From NCBI GenBank assembly GCA_016432445.1, contig CP066689.1:690001-722000 (forward strand): a stretch of DNA of 32,000 nucleotides, given 5' to 3'. Below, piece by piece: positions 2,552 to 31,803 of this stretch; the first letter of the stretch is position 1; every line of letters begins with the position of its first letter. The position numbers and the translations under genes were made by a program. The notes beneath the pieces are model-generated. The model ran no database searches and was not told the DNA's origin. It worked only from the letters and a program-made list of their open reading frames with translations. This stretch comes from Candidatus Saccharimonadota bacterium (GTDB lineage Bacteria > Patescibacteriota > Microgenomatia > UBA1406 > GWC2-37-13).

Positions 2552-4636
2552 CTATGGCGTTTCTAACTCTTTTTTAGCTTCTTCGTACTGAGGATTAACC
2601 TTTTTTAAGAGGAATTCAAAAATCTTTTTAGCTTCTTCATTTTGGCCGTATTTTTTAAAAAGTTGGCCCTTGAGAAAATACGCATCTTCAAAATTAGGCT
2701 TCAAGTTTATCGCTTCCTCAATTTCTTTCAAAGATTTTTTTTGATAATCATTATTTTTATCTTTAGAATCATCATCAAGTAAAGTGTAATACAAAGCAAT
2801 AGAATAAGGTATCTTTGGATCAGTTGGAGACAGGCGCTTAGCCTGAACTAATGCTTCTATTCCCTTATTTAAATGGTTAGAGTCCACTGTACCTTGATAG
2901 AATAAATACTGATTTTTAGCTCTAGTTTTCCAATATGTAACATTATAAGGAGAAGATTTAATGGATTTTAGGTTATAATAATCAGATAATTTAACTAAAT
3001 TCTTGGCAGTTGCAGCATCTTTCTGGTAATGAGTCACGTAGGAAAGATTAGCTAGATTATAAGATAATTTATCTTCATAAACATGCTCATAATGTAAACC
3101 TAAAGACTGAGAAAGCAAGCTAGAAGCGGTTTTATAATCACCGACTTTATAATATGTCTCGCTTTTTGCATAAACTATATCAGCTATGTAGTATTTGATT
3201 AAAAATGAAAGTATTATAAGAAACACTAATGTAATTAGACCTAATGAAATCGTTTGCTTTTTGTCTTTCTTAAAATTTAGGTTAATAATAATTTTTTTAT
3301 TTCTAGGATAGTTTGTATATAATGCTATTATAATCGCTGGAATTATATAAAAAAATAAATTAATGGTAGTTGTTGAAAAACCTAAAGAATTAGTAATTAA
3401 AATTGAAATATAAGCGCAAAATAAAGAGAGAAAAAGAAGAGAATTATTTTTATCAGATAAAATTCTTTTAAAGAGAAGTAATAAAACTGAAAATATCATT
3501 ATTAAATAAGCTGATAAACCAATATAACCTGTTGTTGCAAAATAATTAAGAAACTCATTATGAGCCTTGTTGTAAAGAAAATCCCATTCAGAGGTTAGAT
3601 TATGCTCAACAGGACGTTTAAAATAGTAAGAATTAGCAAACGTTTCTACCCCAGTCCCAAATAATGGATAACTTTTTCCAATCTCTACTGCTCCTTTCCA
3701 GACAATTTTTCTTATATCAAATGAATCAGTTACAATACTCGTTGAGTATTTATTTTGCACAGAATTAATTGTAGTTTTTGATGAAAAAGAAAAATATTTG
3801 TCAATAGAAGGTTTTCCTGTTTTAAAAAACAAAATCAAAAAAATTAAACCTGTAATCATAATAACACTTTTCTTAATACCTACTCTAAAAGAAATAAATA
3901 TTATTAACGCTATGATTGTAGCCGCTATTGCTGATTGTGAGTGAGTAAAAAAAATAGTTATTAAATTAAGAATGAGATATGAAATGTAAAAAATTTTGTC
4001 TTTGATATTTTTTTTTATTTTTGCCTTATCCTTTTGAAGCAAAAAATATAAACCAATAAAAAAAAGCACTGAGAGATATGCACCAAGCCAGTTAGGCTGA
4101 CCTAAAGTGGAAAATAACCGTTCAGCCGGACGGAACTGATCCGTCCAACAGCTGTTGTTAAAATCTCCGGTAAAAGCTAGGCAAAATAAATCATAACCAA
4201 ATTTGCCAGGTAATCCCAAAATGATAACAAAGACAGAGGAAATTAAGGAAATTTTAAGTAATCTAAAAATGAAGCTTTTATCAAAAACATCAATAAAAAT
4301 ATAAAATAACACAAGATAACTTATTATTGAAAATAATCCGCCATTAAAACGGCCGTAATAACCAAAAAGAGAAGTATGGATATCGATCGAAAAGATAGTC
4401 GATAAAACTTGAGAGACTAAAAATAAAATAATAGGAATATAGAATACATTCTTTTTAAGAATTGCTTTTTTTGTCGTTATCTTATCTGTAAGCCAGATAA
4501 ATACTATAAGCAAAGTGATTAAATAAATAAACATCATCTTATTAAACTCAAAAAGTTCCGAAGTTTTCGAATAAACAATCAATGGAGTCGCAAAAAAAAG
4601 GATATAATATAAAAAGCGAATGATGTTTGTTAACAT
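2552..4636 (-). CDS. O-antigen ligase/polymerase-like (Wzy_C-type) polytopic membrane protein with C-terminal TPR repeats
   Basis: 694 aa. About 12 hydrophobic segments are followed by a soluble tail with TPR-like repeats (AYFLKGQLFKKYGQNEEAKKIFE...). This architecture is common in CPR genomes. Confidence 0.6.
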   Translation of the reverse strand: MLTNIIRFLYYILFFATPLIVYSKTSELFEFNKMMFIYLITLLIVFIWLTDKITTKKAILKKNVFYIPIILFLVSQVLSTIFSIDIHTSLFGYYGRFNGGLFSIISYLVLFYIFIDVFDKSFIFRLLKISLISSVFVIILGLPGKFGYDLFCLAFTGDFNNSCWTDQFRPAERLFSTLGQPNWLGAYLSVLFFIGLYFLLQKDKAKIKKNIKDKIFYISYLILNLITIFFTHSQSAIAATIIALIIFISFRVGIKKSVIMITGLIFLILFFKTGKPSIDKYFSFSSKTTINSVQNKYSTSIVTDSFDIRKIVWKGAVEIGKSYPLFGTGVETFANSYYFKRPVEHNLTSEWDFLYNKAHNEFLNYFATTGYIGLSAYLIMIFSVLLLLFKRILSDKNNSLLFLSLFCAYISILITNSLGFSTTTINLFFYIIPAIIIALYTNYPRNKKIIINLNFKKDKKQTISLGLITLVFLIILSFLIKYYIADIVYAKSETYYKVGDYKTASSLLSQSLGLHYEHVYEDKLSYNLANLSYVTHYQKDAATAKNLVKLSDYYNLKSIKSSPYNVTYWKTRAKNQYLFYQGTVDSNHLNKGIEALVQAKRLSPTDPKIPYSIALYYTLLDDDSKDKNNDYQKKSLKEIEEAINLKPNFEDAYFLKGQLFKKYGQNEEAKKIFEFLLKKVNPQYEEAKKELETP

Positions 4637-6031: not shown

Positions 6032-7548
6032 TTTTTTAAGAGTTTGATCCTGGCTCAGGATGAACGCTAGCGGTGTGCCTGAGATATGCAAGTCGAGCGT
6101 CCCCGCCGCAAGGCGGGGTAGTGGCGGACGGCTGAGTAATATATAGGAACCTGCCTTTTTCTGGAGGATAGCCCCGCGAAAGCGGGGGTAATACTTCATG
6201 GTCCAGATACCATCTGGTACCTGGTAAAGGACGTAACTGTCCGGAAAAAGATGGGCCTATATTCTATCAGGTAGTTGGTAGGGTAATGGCCTACCAAGCC
6301 TATGACGGATAGCTGGTTTGAGAGGACGACCAGCCAGAGGGGGACTGAGACACGGCCCCCACTCCTACGGGAGGCAGCAATCAGGAATAGTCGGCAATGG
6401 GCGAAAGCCTGACCGCGCGACACCGCGTGCGGGATGAAGGTCTAAACGATCGTAAACCGCTGTGGTAGGGGAAGAAGTAGGCCATTGGCCTATTGACGGT
6501 ACCCTACTAGAAAGGAGCCGCTAACTGCGTGCCAGAAGCGTCGGTAATACGTGGGCTTCAAGCGTTATCCGGTTTTACTGGGCGTAAAAGGTCGTGTAGG
6601 CGGTTTGATAAGTTATCTCTTAAATTTTCTCGCTCAACGAGAAGCTTGGAGATAATACTATCAAACTTGAGTTTTCTTAAGGGAGACTGGAACTGAGGGA
6701 GGAGTAGTGAAATGCGTTGATACCCTCGGGAACACCAGTGGCGAAGGCGAGTCTCTGGAAGGAAACTGACGCTGAGACACGAAAGCTAGGGGAGCGAAGC
6801 AGATTAGAGACCTGCGTAGTCCTAGCCCTAAACGAATGCCTGCTGGCTGCATGGTTTCCCGACTTTGTCGAGGATTTCGTGTGGCGAAGGTAACCCGTTA
6901 AGCAGGCCGCCTGGGGAGTACGACCGCAAGGTTAAAACTCAAAGGAATTGGCGGGGAGGCACACAACCAGTGGAACATGTGGTTCAATTCGATACGAACC
7001 GAAGAACCTCACCAGGGCTTGAAATCCAAGCGTCCTATCCCGAGGAAACTCGGGAAATTCGCAAGAAGGTTTGGACAGGTACTGCATGGCTGTCGTCAGT
7101 TCGTTCCGTGAGGAGTGCCCTTAAGTGGGACAACGAACGCAACCCCTATCTTGTGTTAAATTTGTCACAAGAGACTGCCCCGCCTATGGCGGGGAGGAAG
7201 GAGGGGCAGACGTCAAGTCAGCATGGTCCTTATGCCCTGGGCTACACACATGTTACAATGAATAAAACAACGGGCTTTGCAAACGCGCAAGTGTAAGCAA
7301 ATCCCTTAAATTTATTCTCAGTGGGGATTGAGGTCTGCAACTCGACCTCATGAACGCGGAATTGGTAGTAATCGCGGATCAGCTATGCCGCGGTGAATAC
7401 GTTCTTGCCTCTTGCACACACCGCCCGTCAAGCCAACAAAGTCGGTGGCATTTGAACCCCGCTCAGCGGGGGAGAATTTCATCGGCGATGAGGGTTAAGT
7501 CGTAACAAGGTATCCGTTCTGGAAGGAGCGGATGGATCACCTCCTTTC
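6032..7548 (+). rRNA. rrs: 16S ribosomal RNA (about 1.5 kb, no large insertion)
   Basis: AGAGTTTGATCCTGGCTCAG at 6039. ACTCCTACGGGAGGCAGCA is present. CACACCGCCCGTCA is present. AAGTCGTAACAAGGTATCC...GGATCACCTCCTTTCT ends near 7548. The ends are approximate to a few nt. Confidence 0.95.
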
Positions 7549-8932: not shown

Positions 8933-10144
8933 TTACCTTAATCTTCCAAAAACAATTTCTGGTAAATCATCAAATGCAACTATCCCCAGTACATGCCTGT
9001 TTTGATCTATAATAGGCACTGCATTTAATTTATATTTAAACATTTTTGCCAAGGCTATTTCTTTAGGTGTAGTTAGATGAATAACAATCGCATTTTGTGT
9101 CATAAATTTGTAGACGGGTGTATCTAAATTTTGAAGTATCATCTCATGAAGACTAAAAACTCCAACTAGTTTATCTTCTTTGTTTAACACATAAATATAA
9201 TTAAGGAATGAAAAATCAGCCGCTTCTTTTTTAATCTTTGATATAACTTCTTTGACAAGAGTATCAGGAGTTGCAGTTAAAAACTGTGTTGTCATTTTTT
9301 CACCAATTGGTGACTGTGACATTTTAAACAAATGCCTTAACTCTTTTTGTTTCCCAGTGTTAAGAAGGAAAAGAATCTCTTCCCTTTTTTTCTCTGATAA
9401 AGTTAGAAGTATATCTACGGCTTCATCAGGATCTATAATTGAAACAACATGAGCGGCTTTCTCTGGTGAAAACTGTTTAAAGATAGCGCTCTGGTAATTA
9501 ATATTTAAATTCTTGATAATATCAACTGCAAAATCTTCATCCAGCGATTTTAGGATTCTATCTGCATTGACAATATTAATTTTCTCAAGATAATCGGCTA
9601 AATCTTCCGGTCTTATTTTCTTAAGTTTATCTTGTTCTGTCTTTAAGATCACCATGCCTCGTGCAAGCTCAAGCGGCTGAATATCAGCCCATGATAAAAA
9701 TTTAGAGGTTATTTTTACTCCAAAATTGATCAAAATACGTGAAATCATATCTTCAATTCCCAGTCTCCTTAAAATGCCCAAGATACCAATGTCAGCGCCG
9801 GCAATATAATATCCTGGGCGATCGTTTATGGCAACGTCATTAACCCTAACAACTTTATTCCCTTCAATATCAATGATTTGTTGATCCAACAGATTTTTAT
9901 TAAGTAGCAGTTCCTGATTAGTGATATTTTGACTCTCAAACTGCTTACTGATAATTATCTGATGATTAATTGACTCAATAGTTGAAGAGGGAATATTCAG
10001 GTAGTTATTTTCTTTATCTTTCACTATGAGTTTGGTTATTTTTGGGGTATCAGAAACGAGAAAAGCAAGATCTTCAAGTTTTCCTACAAAAACACGGTCC
10101 TCTGTACATACTTGTTTTCCTTTCAGCTCGGAAAAATAAAGCAT
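8933..10144 (-). CDS. soluble PRC-barrel + MgtE N-terminal domain + CBS-pair protein (no MgtE membrane domain)
   Basis: 403 aa. N-terminal PRC-barrel-like repeats are followed by an MgtE_N-like helical region (DLADYLEKI...DPDEAVDILLTL) and then two CBS motifs. There are no hydrophobic segments. It lies 6 nt upstream of the Nramp-like gene on the same strand. Confidence 0.7.
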   Translation of the reverse strand: MLYFSELKGKQVCTEDRVFVGKLEDLAFLVSDTPKITKLIVKDKENNYLNIPSSTIESINHQIIISKQFESQNITNQELLLNKNLLDQQIIDIEGNKVVRVNDVAINDRPGYYIAGADIGILGILRRLGIEDMISRILINFGVKITSKFLSWADIQPLELARGMVILKTEQDKLKKIRPEDLADYLEKINIVNADRILKSLDEDFAVDIIKNLNINYQSAIFKQFSPEKAAHVVSIIDPDEAVDILLTLSEKKREEILFLLNTGKQKELRHLFKMSQSPIGEKMTTQFLTATPDTLVKEVISKIKKEAADFSFLNYIYVLNKEDKLVGVFSLHEMILQNLDTPVYKFMTQNAIVIHLTTPKEIALAKMFKYKLNAVPIIDQNRHVLGIVAFDDLPEIVFGRLR

Positions 10145-10200
10145 AAATGGATTATACCTCTTATATATTAGTACTTCAACCTCTATAAAATTGCTACTTA

Positions 10201-10209
10201 TGCTATAAT
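10201..10209 (+). promoter_or_regulatory. extended -10 promoter element TGCTATAAT upstream of tRNA cluster
   Basis: TGnTATAAT match 48 nt upstream of the first tRNA. The identical 9-mer recurs at 29464-29472. Confidence 0.4.
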
Positions 10210-10256
10210 TTAGTCGACCGTTTATAAACCATAGATAATAATCTATAAACTATTTT

Positions 10257-10457
10257 GGGTGTGTGGCTCAGTGGTAGAGCGCGTTCCTGACCCGCCCGCC
10301 TTGACTTCGCGGTCAAGGGCAATTGGCTCAGTGGTAGAGCGTCGTCCTGATAAGACGAAGGTCGGAGGTTCGATCCCTCCATTGCCCACATTGGAACGTC
10401 AAGGCGAAGTCGGGCGCGGTAAGAACGAGGTCCCAGGTTCGATCCATGGCACACCCA
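10257..10457 (+). tRNA. interrupted tRNA gene (Val-GAC or Ile-GAU depending on junction) whose 129-nt intervening sequence contains a whole tRNA-Ile
   Basis: The 5' part at 10257-10291 reads GGGTGTG TG GCTCAGTGGTAGAGC G CGTTC CTGAC. The 3' part at 10421-10457 reads AA GAACG AGGTC CCAGG TTCGATC CATGG CACACCC A. Together they give a 72-nt cloverleaf with perfect acceptor and anticodon stems. The only flaw is one G:A mismatch in the T stem. Confidence 0.6.
10317..10388 (+). tRNA. tRNA-Ile (anticodon GAU)
   Basis: GGGCAAT TG GCTC AGTGGTA GAGC G TCGTC CTGATAA GACGA AGGTC GGAGG TTCGATC CCTCC ATTGCCC A. The cloverleaf is perfect. C4-G69 and A73 are present. CCA is not encoded. Confidence 0.9.
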
Positions 10458-10478
10458 CCCTTCGCCTAAATACCAATT

Positions 10479-10552
10479 GGACCCGTGGCTCAGTTGGTTA
10501 GAGCGCCTCGTTTACATCGAGGAGGTCATAGGTTCGAGTCCTATCGGGTCCA
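10479..10552 (+). tRNA. tRNA-Val (anticodon UAC)
   Basis: GGACCCG TG GCTC AGTTGGTTA GAGC G CCTCG TTTACAT CGAGG AGGTC ATAGG TTCGAGT CCTAT CGGGTCC A. The cloverleaf is perfect. Confidence 0.9.
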
Positions 10553-10618
10553 CTCTGGCTAGAGCGGTCCGACGTTACGTCGGACATGTTGGGGGTTCGA
10601 AACCTTCAGCGGCCACCA
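10553..10618 (+). pseudogene. 5'-truncated tRNA-like element (T arm, acceptor 3' strand and encoded CCA, but no acceptor 5' strand)
   Basis: Starts directly after tRNA-Val. Reads ...TGGCTAGAGC G GTCCGACGTTACGTCGGAC ATGTT GGGGG TTCGAAA CCTTC AGCGGCC A CCA. There is no GGCCGCT partner upstream. The D arm is about 8 nt too short. The anticodon arm is a perfect 19-nt palindrome. Confidence 0.5.
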
Positions 10619-10629
10619 AAGGACTCTAC

Positions 10630-11664
10630 TTATTTTTCCAGCGTGTAGACTGGAATTTGGTCAAAGTAGCGATGTTTCCAACCGTAATCAACCTGCAGAC
10701 AATCTACTAAGGAAAAGCCATTCTCAATAGCTTCCTTAAACTCATAGTAAAGAAGAAAGTTGCCAATGCCTTTGAATCGATCAAGATCATTACCTCCCTT
10801 AACCATGTAATATTTGTCTTTATACGTTATAACTAAATCAATAGCGGCTAAGTGTTTTTGTATATGTATTTCAACAAACTGAGTTTTATAAACACCAGAA
10901 TTTTTTATGATATTCCTATATGTCCTCAATCTATCTTTATCCAAAAGATCGCTTTCATCGTCTAGTCTGGTACTAAAACGTAAGATATTCATCTTAGCTA
11001 ACTTATCAAAGTGTTTATCATTGTTTGTTTTAATAACTTTTACGCGCGGATTCAAACCTTCTATTCGGTAATAATCAGCTTTAAGGTTATAGCGATCTTT
11101 TTTATCAAAACTTTGCAATAACTCATCCATTGAGTTAACTTGACTTATATCTTTTAAATTTTTCGGATCGTCATATTTAAGTTGGTTAAATATCTTTTTT
11201 TTACTCCAGTCCGAGTTAACTTCAATAGCATTGAGGAGTAGAGGATTAGGTGCAATCTCAAACAGTACATCTATTAGCTTTTCGTCTTTCACAAAGAAAG
11301 TGTTATCTTCCATCCAATCACTACCAAACCATAAATATTTTTTTCGATGCTTACTGTACCACAAAGGTAATACCCCAAGAGGTTTCTGTCTTTCATACAA
11401 TGTATAAAAATAGGGCTGATATCCATACCCCTGATACCAGGCAAAACGAAAATCCCAAAGGTCAAATAATGATTTTTTAGGCGAGAATTCTTCCCATAAA
11501 GTAAAACATTCTTCAATATTTGAATGTACTTTCACTGTTAAGCGAGGAATTAGTTTTGATAAACCATTCCTATAAAAATAATTATTTTCTTGATTTTTGG
11601 GAATATAATGCAGTAGCGGTATAGAGATTACGTTTCCTGGTGGTTCTGTATCTGAAATTTCCAT
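10630..11664 (-). CDS. GNAT-fold acetyltransferase-like protein (CelD/BcsL / FemAB-like family)
   Basis: 344 aa. The C-terminal region (KGIGNFLLYYEFKEAIENGFSLVDCLQVDYGWKHRY) resembles the CelD-type GNAT domain. Assignment is by resemblance only. Confidence 0.45.
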   Translation of the reverse strand: MEISDTEPPGNVISIPLLHYIPKNQENNYFYRNGLSKLIPRLTVKVHSNIEECFTLWEEFSPKKSLFDLWDFRFAWYQGYGYQPYFYTLYERQKPLGVLPLWYSKHRKKYLWFGSDWMEDNTFFVKDEKLIDVLFEIAPNPLLLNAIEVNSDWSKKKIFNQLKYDDPKNLKDISQVNSMDELLQSFDKKDRYNLKADYYRIEGLNPRVKVIKTNNDKHFDKLAKMNILRFSTRLDDESDLLDKDRLRTYRNIIKNSGVYKTQFVEIHIQKHLAAIDLVITYKDKYYMVKGGNDLDRFKGIGNFLLYYEFKEAIENGFSLVDCLQVDYGWKHRYFDQIPVYTLEK

Positions 11665-25556: not shown

Positions 25557-25636
25557 GTTTGTTTCGAGCAATCGCCAGGATTCCCTTTCAGGATGCGCCT
25601 GCCTGCCGGCAGGCAGGGCGGCGAGAAACAAATATT
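25557..25636. repeat. GC-rich palindromic intergenic element
   Basis: The arms TGTTTGTTTCGAGCAATCGCC and GGCGGCGAGAAACAAATA enclose the near-perfect palindrome GCCTGCCTGCCGGCAGGCAGGGC. Confidence 0.6.
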
Positions 25637-27339: not shown

Positions 27340-27581
27340 GTTTTAATTATATACCACACCTCTTTAATTTTCTCAGGCATTGCTTTCAAATGCTCAATTA
27401 AAGTAATTAAAGTGAGGATGAACTAGAAAAAGCATTCTTATTTTTATCGCACTTTTACAAAACGGGAAAGCTAATTCATCCAGCTAGGTTACATATCAAA
27501 ATTTTACGTATGTGCGCTTAATGGGTGAATAAAGTGTATGTGCGATCAGGATAGATAACTTCAAAAGAAAGGAAAAGAGAC

Positions 27582-27743
27582 ATGCCCGTATATGACGATA
27601 GGACAGTACCTACTCAACCGGCAGGTTGCACTTGCAAGGGTCTTGGCACTTGCCCATACTGCAGGTCAACAAGAATCCGGCCACTAGGTCAACGACCCAT
27701 CGGAGATAAGCCAACGCCACCTGGCCGGCGAATCGTCTGCTAA
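27582..27743 (+). CDS. small Cys-rich protein (53 aa), cassette 0
   Basis: Below the size cutoff of the track. SD GAAAGGAAAAGAG sits 2 nt before the ATG. Sequence MPVYDDRTVPTQPAGCTCKGLGTCPYCRSTRIRPLGQRPIGDKPTPPGRRIVC. Codon composition is G+C-rich, unlike the host genes. Confidence 0.55.
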   Translation: MPVYDDRTVPTQPAGCTCKGLGTCPYCRSTRIRPLGQRPIGDKPTPPGRRIVC

Positions 27744-27818
27744 AGTAACGCAAACCGCTGAGACTTGAGAGAAATCACCCACTCTTAAGTCTTTTGCGGC
27801 AAAAGGAAAGGATGCAAT

Positions 27819-27986
27819 ATGACACCAGTTCTAGCAACAACGCTAAACTATGCAGTTAACACATTCTACATCTTGGTAGCCATCATTGTTGCCGCTATCG
27901 CCCTTGCTTTCATCATTGTAGCAGGATACCTCTTTTGCGTAATCATCCTCCTGGATGAACTGGGTATACTGCGCTTTGGAGACTAG
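27819..27986 (+). CDS. small hydrophobic protein (55 aa, TM segment plus acidic tail), cassette 0
   Basis: SD AAAGGAAAGGA before the ATG. Sequence MTPVLATTLNYAVNTFYILVAIIVAAIALAFIIVAGYLFCVIILLDELGILRFGD. Confidence 0.55.
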   Translation: MTPVLATTLNYAVNTFYILVAIIVAAIALAFIIVAGYLFCVIILLDELGILRFGD

Positions 27987-27990
27987 ACTG

Positions 27991-28076
27991 TACTTTCCCG
28001 TACATACGGCGGATTTGGTGAGATTGGTCCAACGTGACCCATGCTCTGCATGTAAAAAATCTTAACCAAATCCGCC
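27991..28076 (+). other. conserved three-way-junction element E1 (end of cassette 0)
   Basis: ACTTTCCCG lead-in. The 18-bp closing stem pairs GGCGGATTTGGTGAGATT with AATCTTAACCAAATCCGCC. Inner hairpins are GGTC-CAACGT-GACC and CATGC-TCT-GCATG. Homologous to E2 and E3. Confidence 0.65.
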
Positions 28077-28350
28077 GCCTCAATTCTCTCACATAACTAA
28101 TTTATTCATTAAAAGATATTTTGATCTACTATGAGCTATTGATTTTAAAAATTTAAAAGATTAATATCAGCACAATATGGAGAGGTTATCTTCAAAAAGG
28201 GTCTTTTTTGCATCCTTGGCTAGAGAGTCTCTCCTTTTTTTGTGCCTTTAATTATGCTCTAAAAGCATAGAGCCTAAACTAAAAGGCGCACTTTAATAAA
28301 AAGGGAAAGTCAAATCGCCCGCCCAAAAATAACAGGGGAAAAGAGAAAAT

Positions 28351-28416
28351 AAATCCAAATGTCAAAATTCAAATTTCAAAATTTTATTTGACATTTGTCA
28401 TTTGAACTTTGGATTT
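28351..28416. repeat. phased heptamer hairpin spacer, CAAAT family
   Basis: TCCAAAT GTCAAAA TTCAAAT TTCAAAA TTTTATT TGACATT TGTCATT TGAACTT TGGATTT. Confidence 0.8.
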
Positions 28417-28428
28417 CGTTTGTTTTCT

Positions 28429-28531
28429 TCTTGTCCCTGTTATCGGATAACTTAAGAAAAAGATACCGGATGTATCTTTAACTACCCCTAAAGTAGTTTG
28501 CAAGTTATGGGATGGACGATAAAGGGGACTT
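28429..28531 (+). promoter_or_regulatory. structured 5' leader of cassette A (conserved with cassette B)
   Basis: GTCCCTGTTATCG (28433-28445) pairs with CGATAAAGGGGAC (28517-28529). ATAACTT pairs with AAGTTAT. Two inner hairpins are AGATA...TATCT and AACTAC...GTAGTT. The leader ends 25 nt before the ATG. Confidence 0.5.
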
Positions 28532-28555
28532 GATGACCGGGTATGAGGAGGCCAT

Positions 28556-28897
28556 ATGAACTTAATAAGAGCAATTGTAGTCATTGTTGGCTACTACTTG
28601 CTGTCACTGGCAATAGTCAACTGGTTTGGCAATAGCGCTTGGTTGTTGTTCGTCGTACCCGCCGCAGCCTTAGTTGCTGTCTACTGGGTAGCAACGCAAA
28701 AGCGCGTCTTGAGTACATCTCAGGTAGTGCTTTATGCTATTGGCGCGTGGGTTGTGTCTGCAATAGTAAACGCAATGCTTCCTGAACAGTCCAACGTCTG
28801 GATGCTAATCGTGGCTGTCGCGGTCGCATTAGTTTACGAACTTTCCATCCGACAAGAGACATCCTCACCACGATCCACTGGATGGCAAACACGCTAG
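28556..28897 (+). CDS. 4-TM small membrane protein (113 aa), cassette A; paralog of 30047-30370
   Basis: ORF track. SD GAGGAGG. VIVGYYLLSLAIVNWFGNSAWLLF...ALVYELSIRQ aligns with VAIGYYLVSVGIVYLLNSNAWWLL...AFVYEKSVIR. Confidence 0.7.
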   Translation: MNLIRAIVVIVGYYLLSLAIVNWFGNSAWLLFVVPAAALVAVYWVATQKRVLSTSQVVLYAIGAWVVSAIVNAMLPEQSNVWMLIVAVAVALVYELSIRQETSSPRSTGWQTR

Positions 28898-28962
28898 TAG
28901 AAACAGAACGTTAGGATTACACCCCTCCTTACGAACTGTAATTCAGCCATGAAAGGAACAAA

Positions 28963-29097
28963 ATGAGCGCGGAACCAATCTTCGAAGCCTTCTTTTGGTG
29001 GATTGGAGGTTTCATCATCACATTCTTCGGAGCCGCCGCGATAGGCGCAACCACCTGGTTCATTCGGCTACTTCGCCATTTAAAGGAGGTTGTGTAA
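28963..29097 (+). CDS. small hydrophobic protein (44 aa), cassette A
   Basis: SD GAAAGGAAC. Sequence MSAEPIFEAFFWWIGGFIITFFGAAAIGATTWFIRLLRHLKEVV. Confidence 0.5.
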   Translation: MSAEPIFEAFFWWIGGFIITFFGAAAIGATTWFIRLLRHLKEVV

Positions 29098-29158
29098 CTT
29101 GAGATCGTAACCCCCCGTGCGAAGTTTACCTCGATGAAGACAGAAAGGAGAAGCATAA

Positions 29159-29335
29159 ATGCCTGTTTTATTTGTTGACATCCCTGACGACAAGGTTGCA
29201 GAATTTGTTAGACGCTACATGGAAGCTTTGCATAACAAACACGGCGTTCATTTCACAGCCACAATGACTAATGTCGCCAACGCCCCTCTTTTCCCAGATC
29301 GTTTACCAGCAGACAAGGCCGCCACGATTGTCTAA
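29159..29335 (+). CDS. small soluble protein (58 aa), cassette A
   Basis: SD GAAAGGAGAAGC. Sequence MPVLFVDIPDDKVAEFVRRYMEALHNKHGVHFTATMTNVANAPLFPDRLPADKAATIV. Confidence 0.5.
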   Translation: MPVLFVDIPDDKVAEFVRRYMEALHNKHGVHFTATMTNVANAPLFPDRLPADKAATIV

Positions 29336-29347
29336 ACGACTACTCCA

Positions 29348-29439
29348 GACTTTCCCGCGCTTGCGTCGGGTTTTATTAGGTTTGATTGCGCCCTGCAGTC
29401 AACATGCACCCGCATGTACAACCGAAATAAACCCGACGC
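29348..29439 (+). other. conserved three-way-junction element E2 (end of cassette A)
   Basis: ACTTTCCCGCGCTT lead-in. The closing stem pairs GCGTCGGGTTTTATT with AAATAAACCCGACGC. Inner hairpins are GATTGC-GCCCT-GCAGTC and CATGC-ACCC-GCATG. Confidence 0.65.
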
Positions 29440-29463
29440 TTCCACTTCCTCTAAAATAATAAC

Positions 29464-29472
29464 TGCTATAAT
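29464..29472 (+). promoter_or_regulatory. extended -10 element TGCTATAAT, 7 nt before the ATG (possible leaderless transcript)
   Basis: TGCTATAAT-TTAGGTC-ATG(29480). There is no SD. Confidence 0.35.
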
Positions 29473-29479
29473 TTAGGTC

Positions 29480-29785
29480 ATGAAAATCTCTGCCAAAAAA
29501 GTTAAGGAAACGCTTCTTGAGGTTATTGATCCTGAGCTTAATGTTTCCATAGTTGATCTTGGACTAATTTATAAAATAAATGTCAGTAAAGAAAATAAAG
29601 TTAAAATAACTATGACGCTTACTTCCATAGGCTGTCCTCTTTTTCCCCAGATTGAAGATGATATAAAAACTAAACTTAAAAAATTAGGAATAAAAGAAAA
29701 AGATATTGCTATTGAACTTACTTTTGACCCTCCCTGGTCTATAGAAAAAATGTCTGAAACTGCTAAAGCTATTCTTGGAATTTGA
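29480..29785 (+). CDS. DUF59 / MIP18-family (SufT/PaaD-like) Fe-S cluster assembly-associated protein
   Basis: 101 aa. Contains LLEVIDPELNVSIVDLGLIY...TLTSIGCPL. Composition is AT-rich and host-like. Confidence 0.7.
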   Translation: MKISAKKVKETLLEVIDPELNVSIVDLGLIYKINVSKENKVKITMTLTSIGCPLFPQIEDDIKTKLKKLGIKEKDIAIELTFDPPWSIEKMSETAKAILGI

Positions 29786-29950
29786 TTTTTACATATAAAG
29801 AGTACTATAATCTGCTTCAATTCAGAGAAAATAAGTCTTAAGCATGGCTTATGTGTTCTCACGCACCATAACAACGCGCGAAAAGTTTACATAAAATCAT
29901 TCTCACCAAATTGATGACAGGGATAAAAAGGAAATAATTTTTTATTTTTT

Positions 29951-30016
29951 TCTTGTCCCGGTCATCATCAACTTGGCTTAAAAACCCATGTTGGGTGGAA
30001 TGATGATAAGGACAAT
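29951..30016 (+). promoter_or_regulatory. structured 5' leader of cassette B (conserved with cassette A)
   Basis: TTGTCC..T.ATCATC (29953-29969) pairs with GATGAT.A.GGACAA (30002-30015). The 5' strand TTCTTGTCCCNGTNATC is shared with cassette A, and the 3' strand carries compensating differences. Confidence 0.5.
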
Positions 30017-30046
30017 GATGGAATTTCAGTGAATAAGGAGGACAAC

Positions 30047-30370
30047 GTGAAAAAAAACACTATCTTCGTTGCTATTGGATACTATTTGGTGTCTGTAGGT
30101 ATAGTATACCTACTCAATAGCAACGCATGGTGGCTACTGGCTCTTTCATCAGCTCTACTTGGGTTCATCTATTGGCTTTTCACCTTCGAAACATACGAAG
30201 CCAATATCGTCTTGTGCGTCCTAACCGGTTCCTGCATATCTATTGGAGGAGACATCATAGCACACAATCTATCATTCCTCATATTGCTAGCTGTGTGTCC
30301 TATCACTGCCTTCGTGTACGAGAAATCTGTCATACGAGCAGTACCTCCTCCCCAAAACTCGCCGTGTTAA
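30047..30370 (+). CDS. 4-TM small membrane protein (107 aa from GTG 30047), cassette B; paralog of 28556-28897
   Basis: SD AAGGAGG lies 5 nt before the GTG at 30047. Alignment to the cassette A paralog favours this start over the track start at 30029. Confidence 0.7.
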   Translation: MKKNTIFVAIGYYLVSVGIVYLLNSNAWWLLALSSALLGFIYWLFTFETYEANIVLCVLTGSCISIGGDIIAHNLSFLILLAVCPITAFVYEKSVIRAVPPPQNSPC

Positions 30371-30441
30371 ATAACTTGCAGAAAGTGAGAAGTCCACCCT
30401 TCTAACCGACTGCTAATCAAACTGATTGAAAGGAGAAGCAG

Positions 30442-30594
30442 ATGAAATCAATCCTGGTCAATGTGGTAGCATGCCTTATCCTCGCGGGCTTTGTCGCTTT
30501 AGGCATCTTCCTGTTCATAATTTCACCGGCCATTTTGGCGATAATGGCTCTGCTGGATATCGAGGTCGTACCCGAAGAACTATTTGAGACATAG
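30442..30594 (+). CDS. small hydrophobic protein (50 aa, TM plus acidic tail), cassette B
   Basis: SD GAAAGGAGAAGC. Sequence MKSILVNVVACLILAGFVALGIFLFIISPAILAIMALLDIEVVPEELFET. The ...LLD-acidic tail resembles the one in 27819-27986. Confidence 0.55.
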   Translation: MKSILVNVVACLILAGFVALGIFLFIISPAILAIMALLDIEVVPEELFET

Positions 30595-30604
30595 GAGGAA
30601 CGAA

Positions 30605-30742
30605 ATGGTACAACGCTGGAAGGATGTCATGTCCTGGTCGATCTTCTTTGGAATGCTTGACACCTTTTCTCACCGTTGTTCATCATTGGGAGAATACGCC
30701 AAATCTTCAATGAACCATTCAACCCGTAAAGGAGAAAAATGA
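30605..30742 (+). CDS. small protein (45 aa), cassette B
   Basis: SD TAGGAGGAA. Sequence MVQRWKDVMSWSIFFGMLDTFSHRCSSLGEYAKSSMNHSTRKGEK. Its stop overlaps the next start (ATGA at 30739). Confidence 0.4.
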   Translation: MVQRWKDVMSWSIFFGMLDTFSHRCSSLGEYAKSSMNHSTRKGEK

Positions 30743-31068
30743 AAAGACCATTAGACCTAGAAGAAAAACCCCAGCGACAAAGGCTACTGGAAAGGTCTCA
30801 AGATTGGCTTGACCAATATATGGCCCCGGCTACCTTTGTCCTCGCATCTATTGGGCTATTACTAATCAGCGTCCTACTGTTTAAACTGGAGCTATTTGTC
30901 TCTCTGCTCGGCAGCATCTGCGCGGGTCTTGTAATTGCGGTGATTGTATCCGTGCTTCAGTTCTACTCCGGTTATCTGAGAGAAAAGTTCAGCTTTCTCA
31001 GAAAATTGGAAGCGCTGGTTCCTCGACGATGGAAATTCTCTAGAAAAGAGCTCAACTCGGATTGGTAA
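30739..31068 (+). CDS. 2-TM membrane protein (109 aa), cassette B
   Basis: ORF track. SD AAAGGAGAAAA. Translationally coupled to the preceding ORF. Confidence 0.6.
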   Translation: MKRPLDLEEKPQRQRLLERSQDWLDQYMAPATFVLASIGLLLISVLLFKLELFVSLLGSICAGLVIAVIVSVLQFYSGYLREKFSFLRKLEALVPRRWKFSRKELNSDW

Positions 31069-31076
31069 TTTACTTG

Positions 31077-31176
31077 CAACTTTTCGCGCCTCGTGCCGGG
31101 TTAGTTTTAGATTAGACTGCTCTCCCGCAGTCTTCATGCCACCCACGGCATGATCAATCTCTAATTAACTCGGCAC
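31077..31176 (+). other. conserved three-way-junction element E3 (end of cassette B)
   Basis: ACTTTTCGCGCCTC lead-in. The closing stem pairs GTGCCGGGTTAGTT...AGATT with AATCT...AATTAACTCGGCAC. Inner hairpins are GACTGC-TCTCCC-GCAGTC and CATGCC-ACCCAC-GGCATG. Confidence 0.65.
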
Positions 31177-31184
31177 TCATTCTC

Positions 31185-31290
31185 GATCTTAGATTTTAGA
31201 TGTTTGATCTTTGATTGATTGAAATGAAAACTAATTTGTTCTAATCTTATATCTAAGATCAAAGATCTAAGATCGAAGATCTTACTTAAT
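31185..31290. repeat. phased heptamer hairpin spacer (GATNTTN / AAGATCN)
   Basis: GATCTTA GATTTTA GATGTTT GATCTTT ... AAGATCA AAGATCT AAGATCG AAGATCT, running up to the ATG at 31291. Confidence 0.85.
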
Positions 31291-31803
31291 ATGGCTAAAG
31301 GACAGTTTTGGGATGATACATTTGAAAAATTAGCCGAACTTGGCGCCTCAACCGCAAAAAAAACCGGCCAGGCCGTAACCAAAACCTTCAATCCTTTACA
31401 GGCATTTGAACCGGCCGCACCAATACCTACTCCTGAAGAACAACAAAAACTTAATGAAGGAATGAAAAATAAAGACAACCACAGTAAGCTGGACTTTGAA
31501 AAACTTCAAAAAAAATATCAATATCAAGATGAACAAAAGGAAGATGCTTTAAGACAAAGATTATTTCAGCTTGTAAAAAACGACGAAAAAGAAGCTGTTG
31601 AACGCAATAAACAAGAGAAGGAGCAAAAAGAAAAGCAGGAACTCCAGGAACAGGAAGAAAAAAAGAAAAAACAGCAGGAAAGAATACAACAGGAACAATC
31701 AGCCGAAACTCCAAGAGGAAAAGAACGGAAAAGCATTTTCTCCAAGAAAAAACAAGCTCAAAAAGAACATGCCGAATATAAACCCTCTTCAGGAAAGCAA
31801 TAA
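31291..31803 (+). CDS. Lys/Glu/Gln-rich low-complexity protein, function unknown
   Basis: ORF track, 170 aa. Composition is AT-rich and host-like. Confidence 0.55.
   Translation: MAKGQFWDDTFEKLAELGASTAKKTGQAVTKTFNPLQAFEPAAPIPTPEEQQKLNEGMKNKDNHSKLDFEKLQKKYQYQDEQKEDALRQRLFQLVKNDEKEAVERNKQEKEQKEKQELQEQEEKKKKQQERIQQEQSAETPRGKERKSIFSKKKQAQKEHAEYKPSSGKQ

Follow-up and report, generated by a model that had tools for sequence, protein, structure and literature searches.

What does it mean when a complete transfer RNA (tRNA) gene lies inside the anticodon loop of another tRNA gene? The question is raised by 32,000 nucleotides of the Candidatus Saccharimonadota bacterium contig CP066689.1 (positions 690,001–722,000; the whole of this stretch is called the window below), in which a preliminary description made from the sequence alone had noticed an outer tRNA gene interrupted by 129 nt that hold an intact tRNA-Ile(GAU). 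Three readings had been left side by side: a split tRNA made by processing, a tRNA whose halves are joined by splicing or ligation, and a recently disrupted pseudogene. We compared the locus with related loci and contigs, which carry L-numbers (L010, L103 and so on), and consider it probable that one tRNA-Ile(GAU) gene has been split between positions 35 and 36 by a 129-bp, hairpin-ended cassette bearing a foreign tRNA-Ile, with the outer gene left as a dead shell and the inner gene doing the work.

The two outer halves were matched, far beyond chance, by a hidden Markov model (HMM) trained on 69 distinct intact tRNA-Ile genes from related genomes, and when joined they make a 72-nt tRNA (Table 1). 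With the interior present, ARAGORN and Rfam report the inner tRNA only; with the interior removed, an outer tRNA is called by ARAGORN, as Ile(gat) if 10290 is joined to 10420 and as Val(gac) if 10291 is joined to 10421. Uninterrupted relatives fix the junction at 10290|10291 and 10419|10420, and the outer gene is therefore Ile-GAU: its anticodon loop reads CTGA|TAA, broken between anticodon bases A35 and U36. The halves and the 129-nt insert of the preliminary description thus stand, whereas its boundary at 10291/10421 does not, and of the two identities that it had allowed the Ile one is retained while the Val(GAC) one is ruled out by the uninterrupted orthologues.

These orthologues are close. 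At the syntenic place in L010, where the GNAT protein is 65% identical to that of the window, the tRNA-Ile gene is uninterrupted (...CGCGTTCCTGATAAGAACG...CCTGGCACACCCA, that is, ...CGCGTTCCTGATAAGAACGAGGTCCCAGGTTCGATCCCTGGCACACCCA), and this empty site adjoins the same tRNA-Val allele and the same GNAT gene as in the window; the outer 3' half is identical to the L010 gene at 48 of 49 positions. An intact tRNA-Ile of Roizmanbacteria (MFZO01000031.1, L103) is one nucleotide away from the joined outer gene and identical to it over the 5' 34 nt. An empty-site allele of the outer gene would read CCTGATAAG, with a GGGTGTG acceptor, and precise removal of the insert restores CTGATAA; a spliced junction would read CCTGA-TAAGAACG and the joined 72-nt tRNA GGGTGTG...CACACCCA, with A62. 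The outer gene is, by these comparisons, the resident tRNA-Ile(GAU), orthologous to the intact genes of the relatives. More syntenic relatives were sought through the GNAT gene (P0002, P0006, P0009 and P0013), and none was usable, the contigs having ended or synteny having been lost.

The sole difference from L103 is A10446, which is C in the relatives and which accounts for the one G:A flaw that the preliminary description had seen in the T stem, a G52:A62 mismatch; mismatched stem pairs are absent from all 69 distinct intact tRNA-Ile genes. The outer gene is broken inside its anticodon, carries this mismatch and has no splicing signal, none of which suits a functional tRNA gene. It is most likely a recently killed shell, a fresh pseudogene.

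Could the nest have been made by the assembler, through the joining of reads from the tRNA-Ile genes of two strains? In favour of such an assembly or binning artefact, identical blocks of 17–27 nt are common to the outer and inner genes, and the contigs of L003, L004 and L006, three of the six Logan assemblies shown for the locus, end inside the inner tRNA-Ile (window 10335–10360), not at a nest junction, possibly through low coverage or strain variation. We give the artefact practically no weight: three Logan assemblies, made independently from different runs, agree with one another and with the NCBI contig at every base of the 486-bp intergenic region, the arms of the insert are unique sequence that bridges both junctions, and homologous nests were found in dozens of assemblies, many of them unrelated and made with different assemblers, including the closed chromosome CP066686.1.

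The insert (10291–10419) is built as 26 + 72 + 31 bp, a left arm, the inner tRNA gene and a right arm, and its insertion is exact: no target duplication or direct repeats occur at its junctions (CCTGA|CCCG...GCGG|TAAG). It contains no open reading frame (ORF) and, by consensus scan, no promoter-like site. Against a genome of about 30% GC the two arms, 57 nt in total, are GC-rich, and they are imperfect inverted repeats of one another (I1, 26 nt and 73% complementary, partly taking in the target stem; I4, 9/9; I9, 8/8). In the minimum-free-energy (MFE) structure, as RNA or single-stranded DNA (ssDNA), they prolong the outer anticodon stem by a rod of about 23 bp, which runs through a CUG/AA internal loop, 3 bp, a 1-nt bulge, 5 bp, a 6-nt bulge, 8 bp and further pairs up to the tRNA; as an alternative, the left arm can form a local hairpin, CCTTGAC/GTCAAGG. 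No second copy of the left arm was found in the window at up to three mismatches.

The inner gene is a tRNA gene by every measure used, with all four stems paired and 73.9 bits against the RF00005 gathering cut-off of 29 bits, and the HMM, ARAGORN and Rfam bear out its place inside the split gene as the preliminary description had it. Between it and the outer gene there are 19 differences over 72 positions, where the median between species of the clade is 12, and in acceptor stem and T arm it matches exactly the un-nested tRNA-Ile that is resident in Roizmanbacteria L128. To judge from these sequences it is a foreign allele and no local duplicate, and it is presumed to be the working tRNA-Ile(GAU) of the window.

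The rod prolongs the anticodon stem just as the helix of an intron would, and an endonuclease and ligase of the Candidate Phyla Radiation (CPR), for example RtcB, might in principle excise the rod together with its tRNA and rejoin the halves, so that each transcript would give two functional tRNA-Ile molecules. An outer gene with one stem mismatch in the window, and one with none in L056, would be compatible with such a true intron, as would the many insertions of CPR rRNA genes that are absent from transcripts (PMC9297842, PMC11270868). We nevertheless think a true intron very improbable, even in the freshest nests. The cut lies at 35|36, inside the anticodon, and not at 37|38. A bulge-helix-bulge (BHB) intron requires two 3-nt bulges with a 4-bp helix between them at the junctions, an arrangement that the MFE fold does not have; no BHB motif was found in the folds, in which both junctions face each other across the same CUG/AA internal loop. 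No EndA splicing endonuclease or ligase is present among the genes of the 32-kb window, and the product would duplicate the function of the inner tRNA. In other genomes, outer halves have broken stems, are mixed from different alleles and occur in unequal counts, which a needed tRNA would not tolerate.

Self-splicing fares no better. As the preliminary description had argued, there is no group I intron: no Intron_gpI (RF00028) match at E<=10 was found in 10100–10750, and a P1–P9 core takes about 200 nt or more, against 57 nt of arms. Neither the insert locus of the window nor six nested loci gave any Rfam match to a group I intron or ribozyme, in the same search that did detect a genuine group I intron of L056, in its 23S gene (4246–4551, RF00028), so the search works. 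A hammerhead was also considered, as the TGAC junction makes a core-like CUGAUGA; the required GAAA is not conserved, Rfam gives no match, and the candidate was rejected. The idea that the halves are spliced or ligated thus finds no support in either kind of signal.

Nor does the reading as a split tRNA. Here the inner tRNA would be released by RNase P and 3' processing, and the outer halves would stay paired as a two-piece tRNA or tRNA-like RNA, held together by the 7-bp acceptor stem, the 5-bp anticodon stem and residual arm helices. Such a molecule would have an open anticodon loop with long tails between 35 and 36, which is incompatible with decoding, and with the inner gene the same isoacceptor is already provided; decay of outer halves is seen in other genomes, and neither a precedent nor a conserved feature hinting at another role was found. 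We regard this origin as barely credible. What is left of the three original readings is the recently disrupted pseudogene, with its intact orthologues, its new stem mismatch and shells that decay elsewhere.

Loci of the same kind recur in relatives. Matching on a shared D-arm/anticodon-stem motif, with one genome per species, gave at least 119 loci, nearly all from Patescibacteria. Orphan 5' and/or 3' halves stand around an intact tRNA-Ile, by HMM, in about 25 of the 119 Microgenomates species loci listed, roughly one in five, and three of the 119 loci listed are interrupted directly after CCTGA at the level of exact matches. Breakpoints cluster at model positions 34|35, which correspond to anticodon 35|36; L111 and L077 have a complete tRNA-Ile inside a tRNA-Ile, inserted at the same bond as in the window. 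Seven more nested contigs came from a metagenome scan for two D arms too close together for tandem genes. ARAGORN in its intron mode is blind to these nests because they interrupt the gene at 35|36. Among the matched loci, about 50 besides L012, L014 and L015 come from GTDB representative metagenome-assembled genomes titled 'uncultured Gammaproteobacteria bacterium', with a CPR-type tRNA-Ile in a CPR-like context; these titles look like systematic mislabels and are evidently wrong.

Nesting can be repeated. Some loci reach two to four levels (L132, L136, L052 and L103 are multi-level), and of the metagenome contigs L132 is a triple nest and L136 has at least three 3' halves after its single intact gene. 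The cleanest case is a three-level nest on the closed chromosome (L073), in which the acceptors match level by level: GGGTCGG/CCGACCC, GGGTGTG/CACACCC and GGGCGCA/TGCGCCC. In L103 the allele type of the window's outer gene, GGGTGTG, was once itself the invader of older, now decayed halves. tRNA-Ala genes are nested too, each in its cognate gene: tRNA-Ala(CGC) in L052 and tRNA-Ala(TGC) in L039. As a separate observation, seven Woesebacteria-type loci (L030, L045, L046, L079, L095, L116 and L119) have a conserved minihelix-like element 20–50 nt downstream of tRNA-Ala(TGC), GGGCTTA...GTAGGTTCGATTCCTACTAAGTCCGCA, which has an acceptor stem with G3:U70 and a T arm, and neither a D nor an anticodon arm; it may be what is left of a processed tRNA-Ala, or else a tRNA-like element with a function. 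Nested tRNA-Ile genes were also seen in the 16S–23S spacer of rRNA operons (L056, 1292–4948; L077, 574–4343, minus strand) whose 23S genes have insertions of 700–850 nt, so that nested tRNA genes and rRNA insertions are found together within one transcription unit.

The outer shells decay. Their stem mismatches number none in L056, one in the window and in L136, two in L039 and in L077 and five in L111 (intact genes, 0/69), and both acceptor and T stems are broken in outer halves of some other genomes. In L077 and L111 the 5' half of one allele is paired with the 3' half of another, the 3' half of L077 matching the second-level 5' half of L132; counts of 5' and 3' halves are often unequal across nests, and inner and outer 3' halves are partially homogenised. 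Deletion by recombination between repeated halves would be the simplest explanation of these mixed and unequal sets. The pattern is what a non-functional shell predicts and, as far as sequences can tell, is hard to reconcile with an outer tRNA that is spliced and needed. Dead outer halves also have extra hairpins of 20–55 nt at the tips of D loops (L052, L081, L103 and L134–L136) and T loops (L077, L049, L136 and L081); the T-loop insert of L077 is homologous to that of L049, and in the D-loop inserts the stems have changed in a compensatory way (CCAAT/ATTGG versus CCGCG/CGCGG).

Are the arms simply the leader and trailer of a CPR tRNA gene? Leader–trailer pairing has a median z of 0.05 in plain tRNA-Ile genes (n = 90) and of −1.4 in nested or remnant loci (n = 26). 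Ordinary leader–trailer stems were therefore discarded as an origin, and the arms are a property of the insert. They fall into two families. The TGAC type occurs in at least 14 species; its left arm begins with TGA, C, a hairpin, G and ACATAT in that order, with the same hairpin in 13 of 14, a conserved A-A mismatch and stem variants of which at least eight are compensatory. The target's A35 is part of the base of this hairpin, and distally the left arm is paired with the right arm, which ends in (C/T)TA. A promoter inside the TGAC-type arm (TTGACA) was considered and dismissed, its 19–23 nt to the tRNA start being too short, and a search for dispersed TGACAG...CTGTCA solo elements returned only random-looking matches. 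The GC type, whose members were compiled by hand since a regular-expression census was too crude, has arms of CCYGCC units and includes the window, L111 and L082, and probably L081; GC-type arms carry tRNA-Ile (window, L111 and L082) or tRNA-Ala(CGC) (L052), in each case inside the cognate gene. Versions of the arms without a tRNA were found at the same site in L049 and L116, where they are of the TGAC type, and in the D loops of L081, L103 and L052.

A possible tRNA-less relative also lies elsewhere in the window. The perfect 20-nt GC palindrome CCTGCCTGCCGGCAGGCAGG stands between the RecR and RNase J genes, and the identical 20-mer is found in the D loop of the dead outer tRNA-Ile half of L081; shorter CCTGCCGGCAGG copies (CCTGCC...GGCAGG) occur in L050, L081 (twice) and L089. 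Its resemblance to the arms of the window (CCCGCCCGCC / GGGCGCGG) is at the level of the motif only, and the arms may be related to a dispersed family of REP-like (repetitive extragenic palindromic) palindromes.

Taken together, the locus suggests the following course of events. The insert would belong with other hairpin-ended cassettes in a family that has tRNA genes as cargo and inserts into the anticodon loop of the cognate tRNA gene, of which there is normally one copy; as the target is essential and probably single-copy, only cassettes with a cognate tRNA, which bring their own replacement, would survive. The inner tRNA would be transcribed from the promoter of the outer gene, with the outer 5' half as its leader. 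RNase P and 3' processing would free the inner tRNA, possibly once the rod had been cut by a double-strand-specific activity. It would then be the only working tRNA-Ile, the outer halves forming a non-functional shell that is just starting to decay with G52:A62. Repeated rounds would build nested arrays, which recombination between the repeated halves would erode.

Who moves the cassette? Three features speak for an enzyme that is specific for hairpins or ssDNA and acts in trans: the terminal hairpin covaries, some relatives carry no tRNA, and loop tips are preferred. A transposase of the REP/REPIN kind is a candidate. Endonuclease-triggered or transformation-mediated gene conversion, with the conserved tRNA halves as homology arms, is another. 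Existing nests may plausibly have spread by recombination through the near-invariant tRNA halves, as an alternative to such an enzyme or as a complement.

None of the classes of mobile DNA compared here fits the insert in full. An integrase-mediated insertion would be expected to leave att-type direct repeats, and there are none, nor is there an integrase in the window. Of the hallmarks of miniature inverted-repeat transposable elements (MITEs) or insertion-sequence-type elements, the insert has the terminal inverted repeats and lacks the target-site duplication and dispersed copies, related arms being seen only in other genomes. It does not conform to an element driven by a homing endonuclease, as ORFs of the GIY-YIG type (PF01541) near tRNA fragments were found only in other loci. 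A phage origin was not borne out, no IMG/VR contig having this tRNA-Ile family.

The GIY-YIG ORFs just mentioned encode about 80 residues and were found in five related loci (L013, 1081–1311; L034, 1838–2077; L053, 4284–4517, minus strand; L092, 6172–6408, minus strand; L128, 7603–7842, minus strand). All five have tRNA fragments around them and lie no more than 400 nt from a tRNA-Ile or tRNA-Val gene, and four adjoin a tRNA-like piece whose anticodon arm is replaced by a conserved hairpin, GGTCGCCTGAGGCGAC (CTAAG in L013). The copy of L034 has an in-frame TGA. These CPR proteins are catalytic domains with no DNA-binding domain.

In its widest form our proposal is that tRNA genes of Microgenomates are serially replaced by an undescribed, self-compensating mobile cassette, hairpin-ended and with a tRNA gene as its sole cargo, that is specific for site or structure, kills its target, takes over the promoter and leaves nested fossil shells, as a selfish 'tRNA gene drive'. 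We put this forward tentatively, as a reading that could well be right without being the expected outcome. Several observations count against the main explanation, of a cassette that splits and replaces its target. No transposase, integrase or homing endonuclease is encoded in the 32-kb window, nor is a RAYT (Y1 transposase) within the same extent, and with no mobility gene there, mobility is deduced from distribution only. The same decayed loop in L073, L122 and L124 speaks for vertical inheritance of some nests, so that independent insertions must be fewer than nested loci. Junctions of the TGAC type are compatible with a 2-nt AT duplication and those of the GC type have none, a difference that may mean more than one mechanism. 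Lastly, the outer gene of the window is nearly perfect and, in the window by itself, relaxed constraint is visible at a single base.

Some of these points would suit spread without any dedicated element, in which each type of nest arose by a rare illegitimate event and was then passed on by natural transformation and homologous recombination, the arms being incidental or selected only for processing. The tRNA halves are nearly invariant in the clade, with a 26-nt identical block that could serve as short homology arms; the mixed-allele outer halves of L077 and L111 and the partly homogenised 3' halves betray active recombination; no enzyme gene lies near the insert of the window, and vertical inheritance of some nests is in keeping with a passive history. 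Such an account would, however, have to let at least two unrelated arm families and the tRNA-Ala nests all arrive in the anticodon loop, the tRNA-Ile cases at the same phosphodiester bond, and it leaves unexplained the compensatory evolution of the TGAC terminal hairpin, whose base includes the target's A35, as well as the tRNA-less arms at the same site and in D loops. We judge purely passive spread to be unlikely but not negligible.

How does a cassette of this kind compare with systems already described? Integrative elements with tyrosine-integrase att sites in the anticodon or T loop of tRNA genes restore the gene with a 3' segment of their own. They resemble the nests in having a tRNA target, often at the anticodon loop, in compensating with the incoming DNA and in leaving displaced fragments beside a working gene. 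The window insert differs in supplying a whole tRNA gene within 129 bp, with no integrase and no flanking direct repeat of a tRNA 3' end, and where those elements displace one 3' fragment, the old gene is here left as two halves around the new one. REP/REPIN sequences (moved by RAYT, a Y1/HUH enzyme) and MITEs are, like the insert, short, non-autonomous and GC-rich in their inverted arms, which form a long hairpin, and the solo palindrome of the window with its identical 20-mer in the dead L081 half may be a REP-like trait; unlike MITEs, the insert has no target-site duplication. We know of no REPIN or MITE that carries a tRNA gene or targets the anticodon loop of the cognate gene.

The GIY-YIG endonuclease SegB of phage T4 drives intronless homing of a tRNA-gene region (PMC2330249), a selfish spread of tRNA genes at the DNA level that the nests, and the GIY-YIG ORFs among tRNA fragments, bring to mind. 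Unlike the SegB system, the window insert has no ORF and the CPR proteins are short and catalytic only; SegB homing is not known to nest a tRNA in a tRNA. Archaeal tRNA genes can be intron-containing (with BHB introns), split or permuted (PMC4090602), and they too are broken in or near the anticodon loop, with a helix formed with the exon ends; the multiple interruptions of one gene, in D, anticodon and T loops, resemble those of Thermoproteales. The nests differ from them in lying in a bacterium, in having no BHB and a break at 35|36, in their decaying, mismatched halves and in an intervening sequence that is itself the presumed functional tRNA. Closest in lineage are the insertions of CPR rRNA genes, which are frequent and often sit at stem-loop tips, some of the short ORF-less ones being probably RNase III-cleaved intervening sequences (PMC9297842, PMC11270868; the latter makes no mention of tRNA). 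They share with the nests the lineage, the stem-loop tips of structural RNA genes and the short ORF-less hairpins, but leave the host gene working, whereas here the host tRNA would be killed and replaced. In the full-text literature searched, no bacterial tRNA gene is described as nested in another, and a recurrent, self-compensating, site-specific insertion into tRNA genes appears to be previously undescribed; there is a substantial chance that the nests conceal a new type of element.

We place the genome in Candidatus Roizmanbacteria (Microgenomates, CPR). The nest is part of a compact tRNA cluster on the plus strand, between an MgtE_N/CBS gene and a GNAT-like gene, and the genes around it are ordinary bacterial housekeeping genes. 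ARAGORN and Rfam call only two tRNAs here, the inner tRNA-Ile and tRNA-Val(TAC). A weak sigma-70-like candidate site upstream of the outer 5' half is presumed to be the promoter of the whole cluster. Directly abutting the intact tRNA-Val is a piece of another, running from the D loop to the encoded CCA, with an anticodon loop CGTTACG and indels in the anticodon arm. That it might be the 3' piece of a trans-split tRNA, with a partner bearing GGCCGCT, was rejected, as it is a truncated old tRNA-Val. As this older allele is still intact in L103 and L007 and a remnant here, it marks, on the alignment, a second tRNA replacement at the same locus.

Table 1. Features of the tRNA cluster and related elements, in window coordinates.
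Feature	Position	Strand	Remarks
MgtE_N/CBS gene	8933–10144	−	Left neighbour of the tRNA cluster
Candidate sigma-70-like promoter, weak	10214–10242	+	TCGACC-17-AATAAT; consensus scan only; upstream of the outer 5' half
Outer tRNA-Ile(GAU), 5' half	10257–10290	+	HMM positions 1–34, 29.1 bits; acceptor 5' strand, D arm, anticodon-stem 5' strand, loop C32–A35
Insert, left arm	10291–10316	+	CCCGCCCGCCTTGACTTCGCGGTCAA; GC-rich; pairs with right arm; inverted repeats I1, I4, I9
Inner tRNA-Ile(GAU), intact	10317–10388	+	RF00005, 73.9 bits; ARAGORN Ile(gat); 0 stem mismatches
Insert, right arm	10389–10419	+	CATTGGAACGTCAAGGCGAAGTCGGGCGCGG; pairs with left arm; 6-nt bulge GAAGTC
Outer tRNA-Ile(GAU), 3' half	10420–10457	+	HMM positions 35–72, 25.7 bits; U36 to discriminator A73
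tRNA-Val(TAC), intact, 'GGACCCG' allele type	10479–10552	+	ARAGORN/Rfam; same allele adjoins the intact tRNA-Ile in L010
tRNA-Val(TAC) remnant, older allele, 5'-truncated	10553–10618	+	Aligns to intact tRNA-Val of L103 and L007, position 16 to end
GNAT-like gene	10630–11664	−	Right neighbour; protein 100% identical to NCBI HYW86_03685
GC palindrome, perfect, 20 nt	25598–25617		CCTGCCTGCCGGCAGGCAGG; intergenic, RecR and RNase J genes on either side

Elsewhere in the window, the 16S rRNA gene (6032–7547) is followed by no tRNA-Ile/Ala or 23S gene, and two transporter-type genes lie between it and the tRNA cluster. Between about 27.4 and 31.8 kb (27400–31800) there are few long ORFs, a raised GC content of 0.40–0.44 and no Rfam match, together with two long-range inverted repeats with GC stems (28007–28077 and 29363–29439).

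For this bacterium, the window would hold one working tRNA-Ile(GAU), presumably the inner one, and one fresh pseudogene shell, a recent case of a lineage-wide replacement by nesting. Because automatic annotation calls the inner gene only, the nesting is invisible in databases, and tRNA inventories of the CPR miss a layer of history. The nests are a dated fossil record of the horizontal replacement of an essential single-copy gene, which is unexpected for tRNAs in tiny, streamlined genomes, and a transcript made of rod plus tRNA offers a natural test substrate for how the CPR process embedded tRNAs. If a dedicated mechanism is at work, it would represent a new class of mobile element or recombinase that recognises the hairpin loops of structural RNA genes, and the short, unexplained insertions of CPR rRNA genes may be connected with it.

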